Assembly (NCBI RefSeq): GCF_965641715.1
Contig: NZ_OZ282453.1
Direction: 5' to 3' (one strand)
DNA: 64,000 nucleotides
From: Escherichia coli
GTDB taxonomy: Bacteria > Pseudomonadota > Gammaproteobacteria > Enterobacterales > Enterobacteriaceae
The notes beneath the pieces were generated by a model. It ran no database searches. It had not been told where the DNA came from and saw nothing but the letters and a program-made list of their open reading frames with translations. Positions 3,694 to 53,490 of this stretch are shown here, in pieces. Numbering within the stretch: position 1 is the stretch's first letter; each line of letters opens with the position of its first letter. The translations under genes and the position numbers were made by a program.

Positions 3694-4020
3694 ATGATTA
3701 AAACAACGTTACTATTTTTTGCTACTGCGCTGTGTGAAATTATTGGATGCTTTCTGCCCTGGTTGTGGTTAAAACGAAACGCCAGTGTCTGGCTGTTGCT
3801 TCCGGCGGGGATTTCACTGGCGCTGTTTGTCTGGTTGTTAACGTTGCATCCTGCGGCGAGTGGGCGTGTTTACGCGGCTTATGGTGGCGTTTATGTCTGC
3901 ACGGCGTTGATGTGGCTGCGCGTTGTGGATGGCGTGAAACTGACTCTTTATGACTGGACGGGTGCGTTGATTGCGCTTTGCGGCATGTTGATCATTGTTG
4001 CGGGCTGGGGGCGCACGTAG
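3694..4020 (+). CDS. ynfA: UPF0060 small membrane protein YnfA
   Basis: ORF 3685..4020; [26 protein letters not shown]..., hydrophobic, synteny. Confidence 0.85.
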
Positions 4021-4225
4021 GAACATAAATCCATTTTATCAATAAGATACGAGGAAGTGTCAGCTGACAAAAGGTATTCTATTTCATCTTTTGTCAACCA
4101 TTCACAGTGCAAATATACGCCTTTTTTTGTGATCACTCCGGCTTTTTTCGATCTTCATGCTTGTATGGTAGTAGCTCAGTTGCGTAGATTTCATGCATCA
4201 CGACAAGCGATGCAAGGAATCGAAC

Positions 4226-42560: not shown

Positions 42561-45971
<3,411 letters not shown>

Positions 45972-46028: not shown

Positions 46029-46628
46029 ATGCGTAAACTTTATGCCGCCATTTTGTCCGCAGCCATTTGTCTGGCCGTATCCGGTGCGCCTGCATGGGCG
46101 TCTGAACATCAGTCCACGCTGAGCGCGGGGTATCTTCATGCCCGGACGAACGTTCCCGGCAGTGATGATCTGAACGGGATTAACGTGAAATACCGTTATG
46201 AGTTTACGGACACACTGGGGCTGGTGACGTCATTCAGCTATGCAGGAGACAAGAATCGCCAGCTTACCCGTTACAGCGATACCCGCTGGCATGAAGATTC
46301 CGTGCGTAACCGCTGGTTCAGCGTGATGGTGGGGCCGTCTGTGCGCGTGAATGAATGGTTCAGCGCGTATGCGATGGCGGGTATGGCTTACAGCCGTGTG
46401 TCGACTTTCTCCGGGGATTATCTCCGCGTAACTGACAACAAGGGGAAAACGCACGACGTGCTGACCGGAAGTGATGACGGTCGCCACAGCAACACGTCTC
46501 TGGCGTGGGGAGCTGGCGTGCAGTTTAACCCGACCGAATCCGTGGCCATTGATATTGCTTATGAAGGCTCCGGCAGTGGCGACTGGCGCACTGACGGTTT
46601 CATCGTGGGTGTCGGTTATAAGTTCTGA
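46029..46628 (+). CDS. lom: Outer membrane protein Lom (Ail/OmpX family)
   Basis: Signal peptide and beta-barrel pattern ending GVGYKF. Confidence 0.88.
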
Positions 46629-46686
46629 TTAGCCAGGTAACACAGTGTTATGACAGCCCGCCGGTTCAGGCGGGCTTTTTTGTGGG

Positions 46687-49608
46687 GTGAATATGGCAGT
46701 AAAGATTTCAGGTGTACTGAAAGACGGCACAGGAAAACCGGTACAGAACTGCACAATCCAGCTGAAAGCAAAACGTAACAGCACCACGGTGGTGGTGAAC
46801 ACGCTGGCCTCAGAAAATCCGGATGAAGCCGGGCGTTACAGCATGGACGTTGAGTACGGGCAGTACAGCGTTATTCTGTTGGTGGAAGGATTCCCGCCGT
46901 CACATGCCGGGACCATCACCGTGTATGAAGATTCTCAACCCGGTACGCTGAATGATTTTCTCGGTGCCATGACGGAGGATGATGCCCGTCCGGAGGCACT
47001 GCGCCGTTTTGAACAGATGGTGGAAGAGGTGGCGCGTAACGCGTCCGTGGTGGCACAGAACACGGCAGCCGCGAAGAAGTCAGCCAGTGATGCCGGCACA
47101 TCTGCCCGTGAGGCGGCAACCCATGCGACTGATGCTGCAGATTCAGCACGTGCAGCCAGCACGTCAGCCGGACAGGCCGCTTCGTCGGCTCAGTCAGCGT
47201 CTTCCAGCGCAGGAACGGCATCAACAAAGGCCACTGAAGCGGAAAAAAGTGCTGCCGCTGCAGAGTCCTCAAAAAGCGCGGCAGCTACCAGTGCCGCTGC
47301 CGCGAAAACGTCAGAAACGAATGCTGCAGCGTCACAACAATCAGCCGCCACTTCTGCATCCACCGCGACTACGAAAGCGTCAGAAGCTGCCACCTCAGCC
47401 CGGGATGCGTCGGCTTCAAAAGAGGCGGCAAAATCATCAGAAACGAACGCATCCTCGAGCGCCAGTAGTGCAGCTTCCTCGGCAACGGCGGCAGCAAATT
47501 CCGCGAAGGCGGCAAAAACGTCCGAGACGAACGCCAGGTCTTCTGAGACGGCAGCGGGACAGAGCGCCTCAGCTGCGGCAGGCTCAAAAACAGCGGCTGC
47601 GTCGTCTGCCAGTGCCGCGTCAACAAGTGCCGGGCAGGCCTCAGCCAGTGCCACCGCTGCCGGAAAATCGGCAGAAAGCGCCGCATCGTCCGCTTCAACA
47701 GCCACAACGAAGGCTGGCGAAGCCACTGAACAGGCCAGCGCAGCAGCGAGGTCTGCTTCCGCAGCGAAGACATCCGAGACGAACGCGAAAGCGTCGGAAA
47801 CCAGCGCAGAATCCTCAAAAACGGCTGCCGCATCGTCCGCCAGTTCGGCGGCGTCATCGGCATCATCTGCGTCTGCTTCAAAAGATGAGGCGAGCAGACA
47901 GGCGTCAGCAGCAAAGGGCAGCGCCACGACGGCATCCACGAAGGCGACAGAGGCAGCTGGCAGTGCGACGGCGGCAGCTCAGAGCAAAAGTACGGCGGAA
48001 TCCGCGGCAACGCGCGCCGAGACAGCGGCAAAACGGGCAGAGGATATTGCATCCGCCGTGGCGCTTGAGGATGCGAGCACGACGAAAAAGGGGATAGTAC
48101 AGCTCAGCAGTGCGACTAACAGCACTTCCGAGTCACTGGCGGCAACGCCAAAAGCCGTTAAGGCCGCGTATGAGCTGGCTAACGGGAAATACACCGCACA
48201 GGATGCAACGACAGCACAGAAAGGGATAGTTCAGCTCAGCAGCGCGACCAACAGCACATCTGAAATGCTGGCGGCAACGCCAAAGTCGGTAAAGGCAGCC
48301 TATGACCTTGCTAACGGGAAATATACTGCTCAGGACGCTACGACAGCACAAAAAGGAATTGTCCAGCTCAGTAGTGCAACCAACAGCGCATCTGAAACGC
48401 TTGCCGCGACACCGAAAGCAGTGAAAGCAGCTAATGATAATGCGAATGGTCGGGTACCTTCTGCCCGTAAGGTGAATGGTAAGGCGCTTTCAGCGGATAT
48501 AACACTGACGCCGAAAGATATTGGTACGCTTAACTCAACAACAATGTCATTCAGCGGTGGTGCTGGTTGGTTCAAATTAGCAACGGTAACCATGCCACAG
48601 GCGAGTTCTGTTGTTTCAATTACGTTGATTGGTGGCGCGGGATTTAACGTGGGGTCACCTCAACAGGCAGGTATATCTGAACTTGTTTTGCGTGCAGGTA
48701 ATGGTAATCCGAAGGGGATTACTGGTGCTTTATGGCAGCGCACATCGACAGGGTTTACAAATTTTGCCTGGGTCAATACATCTGGTGATACTTACGATAT
48801 TTACGTTGCAATCGGAAATTATGCGACTGGTGTAAATATTCAATGGGATTATACCAGTAATGCCAGCGTGACTATTCATACGTCACCAGCATATTCTGCT
48901 AATAAGCCGGAAGGGTTAACGGACGGTACAGTTTATTCACTCTATACGCCATCAGAGCAGTTTTATCCGCCTGGCGCACCAATCCCGTGGCCATCAGATA
49001 CCGTTCCGTCTGGTTATGCCCTGATGCAGGGGCAGACTTTTGACAAATCTGCTTACCCGAAACTTGCAACCGCTTATCCGTCAGGCGTGATCCCTGATAT
49101 GCGTGGCTGGACGATTAAGGGCAAACCTGCCAGTGGTCGGGCCGTATTGTCTCAGGAACAGGACGGCATTAAATCGCACACCCACAGCGCCAGCGCATCC
49201 AGTACGGATTTGGGGACGAAAACCACATCGTCGTTTGATTACGGCACTAAATCCACGAATAACACCGGGGCGCATACGCACAGTGTGAGCGGTACAGCCG
49301 CAAGTGCCGGAAACCATACTCATAGTGTCACAGGCGCATCAGCAGTCAGCCAGTGGTCACAAAATGGGTCAGTACATAAGGTAGTGTCTGCGGCCAGTGT
49401 GAATACAAGTGCTGCAGGAGCGCACACTCATAGTGTCAGCGGCACAGCTGCATCTGCAGGTGCTCACGCACATACTGTCGGTATTGGTGCTCATACGCAC
49501 TCTGTTGCGATTGGCTCACATGGACACACCATCACCGTTAACGCTGCTGGTAACGCGGAAAACACTGTCAAAAACATCGCATTTAACTACATTGTGAGGC
49601 TTGCATAA
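46687..49608 (+). CDS. stf: Side tail fibre protein (Stf) with expanded internal repeats
   Basis: [27 protein letters not shown]... lambda Stf-like N-terminus, long Ala/Ser-rich tract, three near-identical ~40-aa repeats, HTHS repeats, C-terminus [24 protein letters not shown]. Confidence 0.9.
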
Positions 49609-50183
49609 TGGCATTCAGAATGAGTGAACAACCACGGACCATAAAAATTTATAATCTGCTGGCAGGAACTAATGAATTTATTGGTGAAGGTGACGCATAT
49701 ATTCCGCCTCATACAGGTCTGCCAGCAAACAGTTCCTATATTGCACCGCCAGATATTCCGGCTGGCTTCGTGGCTGTTTTCAACAGTGATGAGGCATCGT
49801 GGCATCTCGTTGAAGATCATCGGGGTAAAACCGTCTATGACGTGGCTTCCGGCGACGCGTTATTTATTTCTGAACTTGGCCCATTACCGGAAAATATCAC
49901 CTGGTTATCCCCGGAAGGGGAGTTTCAGAAGTGGAACGGCACAGCCTGGGTGAAGGATACGGAAGCAGCAAAACTGTTCCGGATCCGGGAGGCGGAAGAA
50001 ACAAAAAACAACCTGATGCAGGTAGCCAGTGAGCATATTGCGCCGCTTCAGGATGCTGCAGATCTGGAAATTGCAACGGAGGAAGAAATCTCGTTGCTGG
50101 AAGCATGGAAAAAGTATCGGGTATTGCTGAACCGTGTTGATACGTCAACTGCACAGGATATTGAATGGCCAGCACTGCCGTAG
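49608..50183 (+). CDS. tfa: Tail fibre assembly protein (Tfa)
   Basis: 191 aa, ATGA overlap with stf; Tfa-like sequence. Confidence 0.85.
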
Positions 50184-50280
50184 GGTAAAACATATAAATT
50201 CTATAATTAGATGTATCTTTCCATTTACGGCAAGGAAGGGGGCTTGGAAGACGTAAAGCATCTCACACCGAGATTATTTT

Positions 50281-50871
50281 TTATATGTCAGGTGTCTGAA
50301 GTTTTGCTTTGGCTCTTAAAATGGTTTGCCGCGAGGTTTTGAATTCCCGGGCAATGGCACTTATACTTACACCTGACTTAATTCGTTCGAATACCACCTG
50401 TTTCTGTTCTTCATTTAACACAGGTGGTCGACCAAAACGTTTCCCTGCGCCGCGGGCTCTTACTATCCCGGAATGAGTGCGTTCAAGTAAAAGGTCTCGT
50501 TCAAATTCAGCGACTGCTGAAATTACTTGCATCATCATTTTTCCTGTTGGACTGGTCAGGTCAATGCCCCCCAATGCTAAGCAATGCACTCTGATACCTG
50601 TTTCGGTCAGTTGTTCCACTGTTTTCCTGATATCCATTGCATTACAACCAAGGCGATCCAGTTTTGTCACAATCAATTGATCACCACATTTCAGGCGAGC
50701 AAGCAACCGGTTAAAACCAGGACGCTCACTGGTTGCTGCTGAGCCGCTAATGTGTTCTTCGATTATTTGCTGAGGTTTGATTTTAAAACCTGCACTTTCG
50801 ATTTCCCGGCGTTGATTTTCGGTGGTCTGATCCAGCGTTGATATCCGACAGTAAGCAAAAATTCGAGACAT
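50281..50871 (-). CDS. pin: Serine recombinase / DNA invertase Pin
   Basis: [20 protein letters not shown]... resolvase catalytic Ser motif and C-terminal HTH; adjacent to tail fibre genes. Confidence 0.9.
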
Positions 50872-51187
50872 AGTGAGATTCTATACGAAATTGGTGTTCA
50901 TATCATAATGCATCTCAGAAAATAATTTTGATTATTTTTGTACATATTTGTATGTACACGTTCGAAAATAAACGAATGCGTATGCAACCCCGTAATTTTG
51001 GTGAGACCCAAAATCGATTTTGTGAAAAATGGCTTTAACTCGGTTTGTTTTTCGAGTTCCGGGCGGACTCAAGGAAGAAGAATAGTGTTGCGTGTTATTT
51101 TAACCAGATTTCAAGTTGTTTGGTCGTGGAAAAGTGGAGCAAAATGTTGTTAAAGTGGAAAAATGATAAAAAAGTAAGTTTATTATA

Positions 51188-51421
51188 TTACATTTTACCA
51201 TTTAAATTTTGGTTGTCTTTAAGAACTGATATCGCTGTTTGTAATAATTCTTTGTTATCCAGCCATGATTTTTTCTTTATGTTTCCTTCAATGTAATCAA
51301 GCAATGTTCTGGTATTGATAGGTCTTCCCTGTTTTGCTACTTCCACTACAGCATCCCCTAGGATAATTCTTACTTCAGGAAGCTGCGCAGGGAACCACTT
51401 TAGGGTGTCTTTTGATTTCAT
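51188..51421 (-). CDS. ydfK: YdfK/YnaE-like protein
   Basis: MKSKDTLKWFPAQLPEVRIILGDAVVEVAKQGRPINTRTLLDYIEGNIKKKSWLDNKELLQTAISVLK...; resembles remembered YdfK. Confidence 0.7.
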   Translation of the reverse strand: MKSKDTLKWFPAQLPEVRIILGDAVVEVAKQGRPINTRTLLDYIEGNIKKKSWLDNKELLQTAISVLKDNQNLNGKM

Positions 51422-52201
51422 GAAGATATTCCTTAAAATATTATTGATTTTCATTGCGATATTGTATGTCTGATTCAGGATATGTTGGCTTATACATCGG
51501 TTTTGTCTGGGTTATTGGATATGCCAATCCCTAATTTTATTAGGGCATGACTAAAAATGCTGAATATGATAAGGAGAGAAGTGATTATCAGTATGCTGTT
51601 CATATAGCCTCGAATTAGTAATGTGTTATATATGATATAGTTGACAATTTTTATCTTGGGTGTTCTTAAAGTTCGTAGATAAACATTGTCGTTTCAGGTA
51701 TACAGGAATGCTAACAGGTGGCAGCAAAAATCAGGCGGTTTATGGCGCAAGCTGAAGCGGCAACTGCAAACTATCTTATGCAGAGACTCTACACGGATTG
51801 GGTTTAAAAGTATACATAGATAACAGTTTTTATCTGAAGAAGAAAAATATCAAGGTGATATAGCCTATATGCCTTTGATGCGGAGGAATGAATGTGATGG
51901 GAGTGATGTATCTGAATAGTTGAAAAACCGCAGACACGCCTTATGCAAGAACGTGCTGCGGTTGGCTGGTAAATTTTTCGATAGTGTGAGTATTGAATGA
52001 TTTCCAGCCGTTCTTGATTTTACGCATAAATCCATGAAAAAACTACTTATCTGTTGGGGAGTTTTTTTGGGGCATATATGGGACAGAAATAGGCCCCAGA
52101 TAGACACTGAGATCGAACTTAGGATGCTTTTTAAAAAATGCAACTATCTGAAAAAACCTAGAAAACGCCAAGGAAACCACAGGATGGGAAAAAACACCTG
52201 T

Positions 52202-52215
52202 GAATTATGGATTTC
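52202..52215. repeat. attR core (gaattatggatttc)
   Basis: Direct repeat of attL core at the right phage/ydfJ junction. Confidence 0.6.
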
Positions 52216-53490
52216 CAGTTATATTCGCTCGGCGCAGCGTTAGTGTTTCATGAAATATTTTTTCCTGAATCATCAACGGCAATGGCGTTAATTCTGGCAA
52301 TGGGAACCTACGGTGCAGGTTATGTGGCGCGTATTGTCGGAGCATTTATTTTCGGCAAAATGGGCGACAGAATAGGGCGTAAAAAAGTGCTCTTTATTAC
52401 CATCACCACGATGGGGATCTGTACCACCTTAATTGGTGTGTTACCGACCTATGCACAGATTGGTGTTTTTGCACCCATCTTGCTGGTGACGCTGCGTATT
52501 ATTCAGGGGTTGGGTGCAGGTGCGGAAATTTCCGGTGCCGGTACGATGCTGGCGGAATATGCGCCAAAAGGTAAGCGCGGAATTATCTCCTCATTTGTAG
52601 CTATGGGAACTAACTGCGGAACCTTGAGCGCAACGGCAATCTGGGCCTTTATGTTCTTCATTCTCAGTAAAGAGGAACTGCTGGCGTGGGGATGGCGTAT
52701 ACCGTTCCTGGCGAGCGTTGTCGTGATGGTCTTTGCTATCTGGTTACGTATGAATCTGAAAGAAAGCCCGGTCTTTGAGAAGGTTAATGACAGCAACCAA
52801 CCGACAGCAAAACCTGCACCTGCTGGTAGCATGTTCCAGAGCAAATCCTTCTGGCTGGCAACAGGGCTGCGTTTTGGTCAGGCGGGTAACTCCGGGTTAA
52901 TTCAGACTTTCCTTGCAGGCTATTTAGTGCAGACGTTATTGTTTAACAAAGCAATTCCAACAGATGCATTGATGATTAGTTCGATTCTCGGCTTTATGAC
53001 CATTCCGTTCCTTGGTTGGTTATCCGATAAAATTGGTCGCCGGATCCCGTATATTATTATGAATACCTCCGCGATTGTGCTGGCATGGCCAATGCTTTCT
53101 ATCATCGTAGATAAAAGCTATGCCCCGAGCACCATTATGGTTGCACTGATTGTGATTCATAACTGTGCGGTGCTGGGATTATTTGCTCTGGAAAACATTA
53201 CCATGGCAGAAATGTTCGGCTGTAAAAACCGTTTTACCCGGATGGCTATTTCTAAAGAAATTGGTGGTCTTATCGCTTCCGGTTTTGGTCCTATCCTGGC
53301 GGGTATTTTCTGCACCATGACGGAATCCTGGTATCCGATCGCCATTATGATCATGGCATATTCAGTGATTGGTTTAATCTCTGCGCTGAAAATGCCAGAA
53401 GTGAAAGACCGTGATTTAAGTGCGCTGGAAGACGCTGCGGAAGATCAACCGCGTGTTGTAAGAGTTGCGCAACCTTCCAGAAGTCTGTAA
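52207..53490 (+). pseudogene. ydfJ: 3' portion of MFS transporter gene ydfJ (N-terminally truncated by prophage)
   Basis: 427-aa ORF starting at the Met of ...EFMDFQLYS...; multi-TM MFS sequence; continues the frame begun at 6529. Confidence 0.8.

Follow-up and report, generated by a model that had tools for sequence, protein, structure and literature searches.

We analyzed a 64,000-nucleotide stretch of Escherichia coli DNA (contig NZ_OZ282453.1 of assembly GCF_965641715.1; the whole stretch is called the window here), in which a small serine recombinase gene lies just beyond the tail fiber genes stf and tfa of a lambdoid prophage. The locus is pinQ/pinR of the Qin/Rac type of lambdoid prophage and has long been known: the encoded protein is exactly PinR of strain K-12 and differs from K-12 PinQ at two residues. 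An earlier note on this DNA had read the locus as a tail fiber switch of the Gin/Cin/Pin kind. Our analysis indicates that pinQ/pinR is probably the orphaned tnpR, the resolvase gene, of a decayed Tn3-family transposon and not a switch invertase. In the proposed history, a forerunner of these phages would have acquired a Tn3-family transposon some 50 bp downstream of tfa, and the transposon would then have lost its transposase gene, tnpA. This would have left a relic of about 834 bp (50238-51071) consisting of a left inverted repeat (IR-L) remnant, a degenerate res, tnpR and a right inverted repeat (IR-R) remnant. The genes and remnants concerned are the following.

46687-49608, plus strand: stf, side tail fiber gene, 973 amino acids (Pfam phage_tail_N, three Phage_fiber_2 and Collar)
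49608-50183, plus strand: tfaQ-type tail fiber assembly gene, 191 amino acids (Pfam Caudo_TAP, E=1.6e-42; annotated tfaQ in an identical genome)
50233-50237: first copy of an AGGAA direct repeat, a candidate target-site duplication outside the IR-R remnant; read from the sequence and suggestive only
50238-50272, plus strand: decayed IR-R (GGGGG-CTTGGAAGACGTAAAGCATCTCACACCGAG) located shortly past the stop codon of the recombinase, aligned with the 38-bp inverted repeats of the pMOO-32 and Shewanella elements
50281-50871, minus strand: pinQ/pinR-type small serine recombinase, 196 amino acids (Pfam Resolvase, E=2.5e-36; HTH_7, E=3.8e-11)
50882-50984, minus strand: degenerate res-like region directly upstream of the recombinase, overlapping promoter-like hexamers
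50882-50903, minus strand: positional homologue of res subsite III
50913-50944, minus strand: positional homologue of res subsite II
50959-50984, minus strand: positional homologue of res subsite I, the crossover site
51034-51071, minus strand: candidate decayed IR-L, oriented as expected for the other transposon end
51072-51076: second copy of AGGAA, directly outside the candidate IR-L

Kinship with Tn3-family resolvases

The earlier note had placed a full-length serine recombinase beyond tfa, and the open reading frames (ORFs) and Pfam domains bear this out. The relatives of this protein, however, are not primarily the switch invertases. Its identity to PinE was 38%, and the alignment with Gin, which was the best match in the Protein Data Bank (E=2.7e-29), was similarly distant. 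In contrast, it was 77-85% identical to recombinases that divergently adjoin Tn3-family transposases on plasmids and in Shewanella. Homologues were found on more than 1,800 plasmid records, mostly at 60-85% identity, and also in several other genera, while NCBIfam returned only subthreshold matches (Mpi, XisF and CcrB).

In pMOO-32, pRM10386-2, pECOED and Shewanella, the divergent neighbor of the homologue is a Tn3-family transposase of about 1,000 amino acids, recognized by Pfam DDE_Tnp_Tn3 (E=1e-148 and 1e-123) together with DUF4158. The pMOO-32 element (NZ_MK169211.1) measures 3.8 kb and holds tnpA, res and tnpR only. In all four settings, including that of Shewanella glacialipiscicola, the unit is enclosed by 38-bp terminal inverted repeats (GGGGTCCGCTTGGAAAACGGAAAATATCCCACGCTAAG). 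A literature look-up for a name for the pMOO-32 element (ISEc63 or ISSod9) gave no assignment.

Upstream of the gene, these relatives share a common res layout. It recurred in relatives from six genera (Escherichia plasmids, Erwinia, Shewanella, Photorhabdus, an Oxalobacteraceae metagenome-assembled genome and Zongyanglinia), a small but phylogenetically wide sample, as the scan of genome contigs yielded 10 loci. Site I is a 26-bp dyad, for example TGACCGAAACCG-GT-CGGTTTCGTACA, with half-sites at -115/-98; site II is a 32-bp inverted pair at -75/-52; and site III is a direct pair at -34/-21. Since this three-site upstream layout is the classical res organization of resolvases, the relatives are transposon resolvases (TnpR). 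We hold with high confidence that the window gene is of TnpR descent.

Probable transposon remnants around the gene

The ends of Tn3-family transposons consist of 38-bp inverted repeats (GGGG...ACGCTAAG), and their insertion duplicates 5 bp of the target. DNA homology of 82.6% to the plasmid element extends over 50242-50951, from past the stop codon through the gene to res sites III and II, and the IR-R remnant continues this homology. The remnant matched at 23 of 31 ungapped positions, which was the top match in the whole window and exceeded all of 40 shuffles (maximum, 21). At the other end, the candidate IR-L was found at the position and in the orientation predicted, with 24 of 38 positions matching, a value equal to the best of 40 whole-window shuffles. 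The AGGAA repeats bracket the 834-bp cassette between these ends (50238-51071), and a wider 8-bp match, CAAGGAAG, surrounds them (first copy, 50231-50238). The exact boundaries of the insertion are proposed with moderate confidence.

Nowhere in the 64 kb did a pair of the same geometry score higher than the window site I and site II pairs. Both values, 8.8 for site I and 13.7 for site II, were nevertheless in the range obtained with shuffled sequence, compared to 24-31 for real site I pairs, and the res remnant is for this reason recognized by its position and by the flanking homology. Decay was strongest in the left half of the crossover site (CATACGCAT versus TGTCCGAAA), which retains 4 of 9 consensus positions. 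No other res-type site pair was detected in the window, and none near tfa or stf. We found no TnpA-like coding sequence in the window or in the phage and prophage loci, and the element is thus a relic rather than a transposon.

Two further sequences deserve mention. A near-perfect family half-site, TGACCGAAA (score, 13.1), is present on the minus strand at 50601-50609 inside the recombinase coding sequence, but no second half-site stands at the distance typical of site I or site II. A palindrome, TGTACATA-N4-TATGTACA (about 50936-50955), was rejected as a candidate site: it takes in the spacer plus the left half of subsite II, and the relatives do not conserve it as a unit.

Absence of a tail fiber switch at the locus

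The earlier note had reported a single tfa, a single stf C terminus and no gix/pix-like sites around tfa by eye, and all three observations were upheld. When Tfa, the Stf C terminus and the recombinase were each compared by tblastn with the window, single copies were found, and no second fiber and assembly set (Sv', tfa') or fragment of one was detected in the window by the same means. The core AAACCNNGGTTT, allowing at most one mismatch, matched twice in the 64 kb (at 26.6 and 62.8 kb), compared to 2.2 matches expected, and neither match was near the locus. The 26-bp hix/gix/pix consensus gave no match in the window with up to three mismatches, and an inverted-repeat search over 46600-51600 returned only weak or chance-level pairs. 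In the comparison of 48500-49650 with 50180-50290 that the earlier note had proposed, the best inverted match was 11/14, at the level of the shuffle mean (11.1). The approach was validated on e14 of K-12, where a search of this type recovered pixL (TTCTCCCAAACCAAGGTTTTCGAGAG) and pixR (TTCTCCCAAACCAACGTTTATGAAAA, the two sites that flank the 1.8-kb P segment). One inverted pair of 17 nucleotides with 94% identity (47448-47464 and 48059-48075) was set aside; it lies at low-complexity edges within stf, has no dyad-symmetric site character and is probably compositional.

We also looked for inversion isomers among complete E. coli genomes. The stf3'-tfa-pin3' junction was collinear in 1,984 of them and the tfa3'-pin-ydfK flank in 2,673, and no split, inverted or rearranged match at stf-tfa-pin-ydfK occurred among the sampled matches. 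This agrees with the BLAST analysis of Kirigo et al. (PMC12529663), who found inversions only in e14 and none in Qin or Rac.

The other part of the earlier note, that the genes have the arrangement of an invertible tail fiber switch whose orientation may be fixed or whose sites may have diverged, was not supported. The recombinase is convergent with tfa, with its 3' end and not its 5' end toward tfa, whereas in e14 it is the 5' end of pinE that abuts the invertible segment. A fixed or degenerate Gin/Cin/Pin-type switch would be an Sv-tfa/tfa'-Sv' segment that has lost one half together with its crossover sites. The adjacency of a serine recombinase to stf and tfa speaks for such a switch, and other lambdoid prophages do have true Pin-type remnants beyond tfa. 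One of these, locus L023 in E. coli Esc17, is a lambdoid prophage at ssrA whose stf and tfa are 96% identical to those of the window. At 3913-4109 it carries a PinE-type fragment that is 92% identical over 51 amino acids (PinE residues 46-96) and points away from tfa, followed by an RnlA/RnlB toxin-antitoxin pair. Because of this fragment, decayed Gin/Pin-type switches beside tfa can be said to exist, but not in this window. Here, the orientation is opposite to that of switch invertases, the protein is far closer to the Tn3-adjacent recombinases than to PinE, neither hix-like sites at three mismatches nor tfa'/Sv' fragments were found, and apparent remnants of a transposon inverted repeat and of res flank the gene. 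Moreover, the same cassette stands beside a different fiber module in phage PhiR63_1. The degenerate-switch explanation is largely refuted already by these findings, and we consider it extremely improbable.

We thus conclude with high confidence that there is no tail fiber switch at this locus. If the gene is a stranded transposon resolvase rather than a switch invertase, gix/pix-like repeats would not be expected beside tfa. The only site of the protein family's own type that would be left is one decayed res immediately upstream, and with no partner site nothing beside tfa should be able to invert.

Distribution and selection

Of 5,426 complete E. coli genomes, 2,750 carried the cassette (757 bp) with a coverage of at least 80%, and 2,466 records matched at 99% identity or more; many genomes contained at least two copies. 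The block from the recombinase to ydfK was also found, 99-100% identical, in viable lambdoid phages, including 2H10, mEp460, Tritos, HannyBb, PhiR63_1 and others. In PhiR63_1 it adjoins a different tail fiber module, and the homology between window positions 50072-50183 and PhiR63_1 (locus positions about 2440-2553) takes in the last 110 bp or so of tfa. Since the homology includes this 3' end, the boundary of fiber-module exchange lies inside tfa and not at the cassette.

The ratio of nonsynonymous to synonymous substitution rates (dN/dS) was 0.15 relative to transposon tnpR and 0.37 between two prophage lineages whose proteins carry the cysteine described below, which suggests some relaxation of selection but no free decay. 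The helix-turn-helix (HTH) region was almost unchanged compared to transposon TnpRs, and DNA binding is therefore probably retained.

Replacement of a catalytic arginine by cysteine

Codon 76 of the window gene is TGT (50644-50646, minus strand) and encodes a cysteine at the position of catalytic R71 of the gamma-delta and Tn3 resolvases (KLDRLG-C-N in the window protein versus KLDRLG-R-D in gamma-delta resolvase). The transposon relatives have CGT, CGC or CGA (Arg) at this position, and a single C-to-T transition, CGT to TGT, accounts for the replacement. Arginine was found in every transposon, plasmid or non-Escherichia relative, and also in PinE and Gin. Among the 120 closest cluster representatives, 112 had DRLGR and five had DRLGC, the latter being PinQ/PinR and one other prophage lineage. 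Cys76 is shared by the window protein, PinR and PinQ. The other catalytic residues Y7, R9, S11 and R73 (Y6, R8, S10 and R68 in Tn3 numbering) and the D67 equivalent are kept, and the position of D36 is occupied by E throughout the family. The full active-site set (Y6, R8, S10, D36, R68 and R71) is thus not complete in the window protein. R71 of Tn3 resolvase belongs to a set of six residues at which mutation abolishes recombination and reduces cleavage about 1,000-fold, and the R71A and R71K substitutions each abolished recombination (Olorunniji and Stark 2009, PMC2794168). Since cysteine takes the place of this residue, the window protein is predicted to be poor or inactive in strand cleavage.

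We noted one prophage copy with arginine at the R71 position, in E. coli GCA_910593615.1 (5860-6591, corresponding to window positions 50281-51000). This copy has a mosaic structure: res sites II and III and most of the gene are 96% identical to the tnpR of a plasmid transposon, while the last 13 codons and site I are of the prophage type. Its composition suggests that gene conversion has taken place between pin genes of prophages and Tn3-family elements on plasmids.

The protein might still be a functional resolvase acting in cis at a working, co-evolved res, resolving phage or prophage multimers or recombining the Rac and Qin copies. In keeping with this, the subsite positions are kept and hold the best-scoring pairs in the window, the HTH region is near-identical to that of transposon TnpRs, the ORF is intact and under purifying selection, and at least two copies occur in many genomes. 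We nevertheless judge this explanation very unlikely. The left half of site I agrees with the consensus at only 4 of 9 positions, the site I pair scores 8.8 compared to 24-31 in real res, and R71 is replaced. Co-evolution does not explain the decay of res, because there is no matching change in the nearly unchanged binding domain. We also know of no need for a resolvase in integrated lambdoid prophages, and we counted this against a role in cis.

PinQ/PinR and the P segment of e14

PinQ, as well as PinR, has been reported to act in trans on e14, inverting its P segment and thereby protecting K-12 against phage T2 (Kirigo et al., NAR 2025, PMC12529663). PinQ/PinR could thus be an active trans-acting invertase of the 1.8-kb P segment, giving rise to StfE2 and blocking T2 adsorption, an explanation that is compatible with a transposon origin of the gene. 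The proteins studied by Kirigo et al. are 99-100% identical to the window protein. Overproduction of PinQ raised inversion from about 30% to 88%, survivors carried the inversion, and deletions of stfP, stfE or e14 abolished the effect (PMC12529663). In our own comparison, 9 of the 11 bases of the conserved pix half-site TCTCCCAAACC agreed with the half-site consensus of the family (TGTCCGAAACC). This half-site ranked joint 5th among about 16,000 11-mer positions of the e14 locus (both strands), and only 27 of 127,980 11-mers in the window scored as high. This resemblance would lend modest support to an interaction between PinQ and pix.

Several observations nevertheless make direct inversion by PinQ/PinR unlikely in our view. 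Catalytic R71 (PMC2794168) is replaced by cysteine, and a pinE mutant was locked in one orientation despite the presence of pinQ and pinR (PMC12529663), so that PinE itself seems to be needed for inversion of the P segment; together these two points argue against direct catalysis by PinQ. A term search of PMC12529663 found neither an in vitro recombination assay nor a catalytic-serine mutant. A reversible invertase by itself does not give a ratio of 88:12, for which selection or biased binding could be responsible. With a score of 8.7, the half-site of pix falls short of the 12.4-18.0 seen in the family, and the spacing of the half-sites is off by 2 bp. No pix-like site was found in the 64-kb window; e14 itself is about 440 kb away in K-12, outside any window of 64 kb. 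The K-12-type P segment and pinE were collinear in 170 of 5,426 genomes (288 records at 99% identity or more), compared to 2,750 genomes with the pin cassette. Since the P segment is far rarer than the cassette, its inversion is not the general reason why the cassette is retained. A noncatalytic PinQ that binds pix and biases PinE-mediated inversion would reconcile these data.

Two details of PMC12529663 are recorded here for completeness: PinQ is assigned variously to Qin and to Rac, and a trematode is listed among the carriers of PinR/Q, probably through contamination.

Present role of the gene

Because about half of the complete E. coli genomes, and viable phages as well, carry an uninterrupted ORF, with a dN/dS below 1, the gene appears to be kept for something other than strand cleavage. 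With low confidence, we propose that the likeliest present function of PinQ/PinR would be DNA binding or regulation at its own promoter and res remnant or at related half-sites elsewhere; the latter may include the pix sites of e14 and thereby the inversion reported in trans. A regulatory function of a different kind, the repression of antioxidant genes by PinR, is proposed in the abstract of a preprint (10.1101/2022.03.29.486199). It is possible, though we hold it only tentatively, that the gene is an exapted resolvase: with tnpA and the crossover site decayed and R71 changed to cysteine, it would have been kept as a DNA-binding regulator of its own expression or of adjoining accessory genes, or as a noncatalytic, pix-binding modulator of inversion by PinE.

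Some points weigh against the orphaned-tnpR explanation and the role proposed with it. A joined-flank query (TTTACGGCAAGGAAGAAGAATAGTG) found no empty-site allele among 5,426 E. coli genomes, nor among 50,697 phage records; the insertion event is for this reason deduced from the remnants. The IR-L is statistically borderline, its 24 of 38 matches equaling the shuffle maximum, and the score of the res remnant is within the range of shuffled sequence. A regulatory role is conjecture. Finally, if inversion by PinQ in vivo is direct catalysis, the prediction that the R71 replacement cripples the enzyme is wrong.

The origin of the gene matters for how it is interpreted. The name Pin (P-segment inversion) implies a Gin-type invertase, whereas the sequence places the gene among Tn3-family resolvases. 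The resolvase kinship and the missing arginine thus bear on the claim that PinQ is a new recombinase-driven antiphage defense, and neither the term-searched text of PMC12529663 nor the abstract of 10.1101/2022.03.29.486199 mentions a transposon origin or the missing catalytic arginine. If the gene is indeed an exapted resolvase, this "recombinase-activated" defense would work through a catalytically impaired cofactor and not through a second invertase. The locus would also be a tidy example of a transposon module stranded, and possibly domesticated, in a phage accessory region.

Prophage setting

The locus belongs to a Qin-type lambdoid prophage that is full length in the window, extending from the integrase near 6.7-7.9 kb to the ydfJ junction at about 52.2 kb, with about 45 kb between the integrase and pin. 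Annotation of the neighboring genes was taken from a genome with 100% identity over the 3.2 kb queried, and annotated stf-tfaQ-pinQ-ydfK-ynfT-ydfJ' regions were 100% identical in DNA sequence to the window locus. The remaining genes at this end of the prophage are the following.

42564-45971: J, annotated gene of the prophage end
46029-46628: lom, annotated gene of the prophage end
51188-51421, minus strand: ydfK/ynaE-type cold-shock gene, from annotation; same order in phages 2H10 and PhiR63_1
51490-51603, minus strand: ynfT, which together with ydfK makes up the accessory block that separates the recombinase cassette from the end of the prophage
52207-53490, plus strand: ydfJ, a host gene without its N terminus, annotated as incomplete; same junction as in K-12 Qin

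The incomplete ydfJ marks the right junction between prophage and chromosome. Over about 6,500-52,200 the Qin-type prophage looks complete. Its gene content includes integrase, excisionase, exonuclease, dicB, CI/Cro-like regulators, a Q-like antiterminator and lysis genes, as well as structural genes for terminase, portal, capsid and tail. Further cargo comprises tRNA-Arg, tRNA-Ile, the cspI/ymcF cold-shock genes, gnsB and a hokD pseudogene. Within stf, about 950 bp (47100-48050) are low-complexity coding sequence rich in Ala, Ser and Thr, followed at 48060-48400 by three tandem copies of the Phage_fiber_2 repeat of about 40 amino acids.

Comparison with known systems

The closest counterparts are PinQ (b1545, Qin) and PinR (b1374, Rac) of K-12, whose loci have the same order, stf-tfa-pin-ydfK/ynaE-ynfT/ynaM, and a matching 97-bp spacer between tfa and pin; the ydfJ junction is that of Qin. 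In K-12, Qin is a truncated remnant of about 20 kb, while the window prophage is full length, and no functional difference is expected from this.

The switch invertases Gin (Mu), Cin (P1), PinE (e14) and Hin resemble the window protein in being small serine recombinases with Resolvase and HTH_7 domains and in standing beside tail fiber genes. An AAACC core is common to their half-sites and to those of the window recombinase family. Switch invertases that are interchangeable are about 60-70% identical to each other. Their crossover sites are imperfect dyads of about 26 bp (12-2-12, AAACC..GGTTT core) in inverted orientation on either side of the segment, which holds two oppositely oriented sets of fiber C terminus and assembly gene, and a recombinational enhancer bound by Fis lies within the 5' part of the invertase gene. 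Unlike these systems, the window has no 26-bp inverted sites and no alternative fiber genes, and its recombinase is in convergent orientation. In e14, about 60 bp separate the pinE start codon from pixR on its upstream side, so that the 5' end of the gene abuts the invertible segment, and gin, cin and hin are arranged in the same manner, with the 5' end toward the segment; the window gene is placed the opposite way.

The Tn3-family TnpR/res systems of pMOO-32, pRM10386-2, pECOED and Shewanella have the same subsite spacing as the candidate subsites of the window, with 77-85% amino acid identity and, for the plasmid element, 82.6% DNA identity. The window differs from them in that tnpA is missing, res is degenerate (the crossover site most of all) and the terminal repeats are decayed; R71 is changed to Cys, and the cassette is embedded in a phage genome. 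The resolvases of gamma-delta and Tn3 can be aligned end to end with the window protein (E=2.4e-22), with Y6, R8, S10, D67 and R68 conserved in the alignment, and a three-subsite res upstream of the gene is likewise found in the window protein's family. In sequence they are distant, however, and the window protein has E at the D36 position and C at that of R71.

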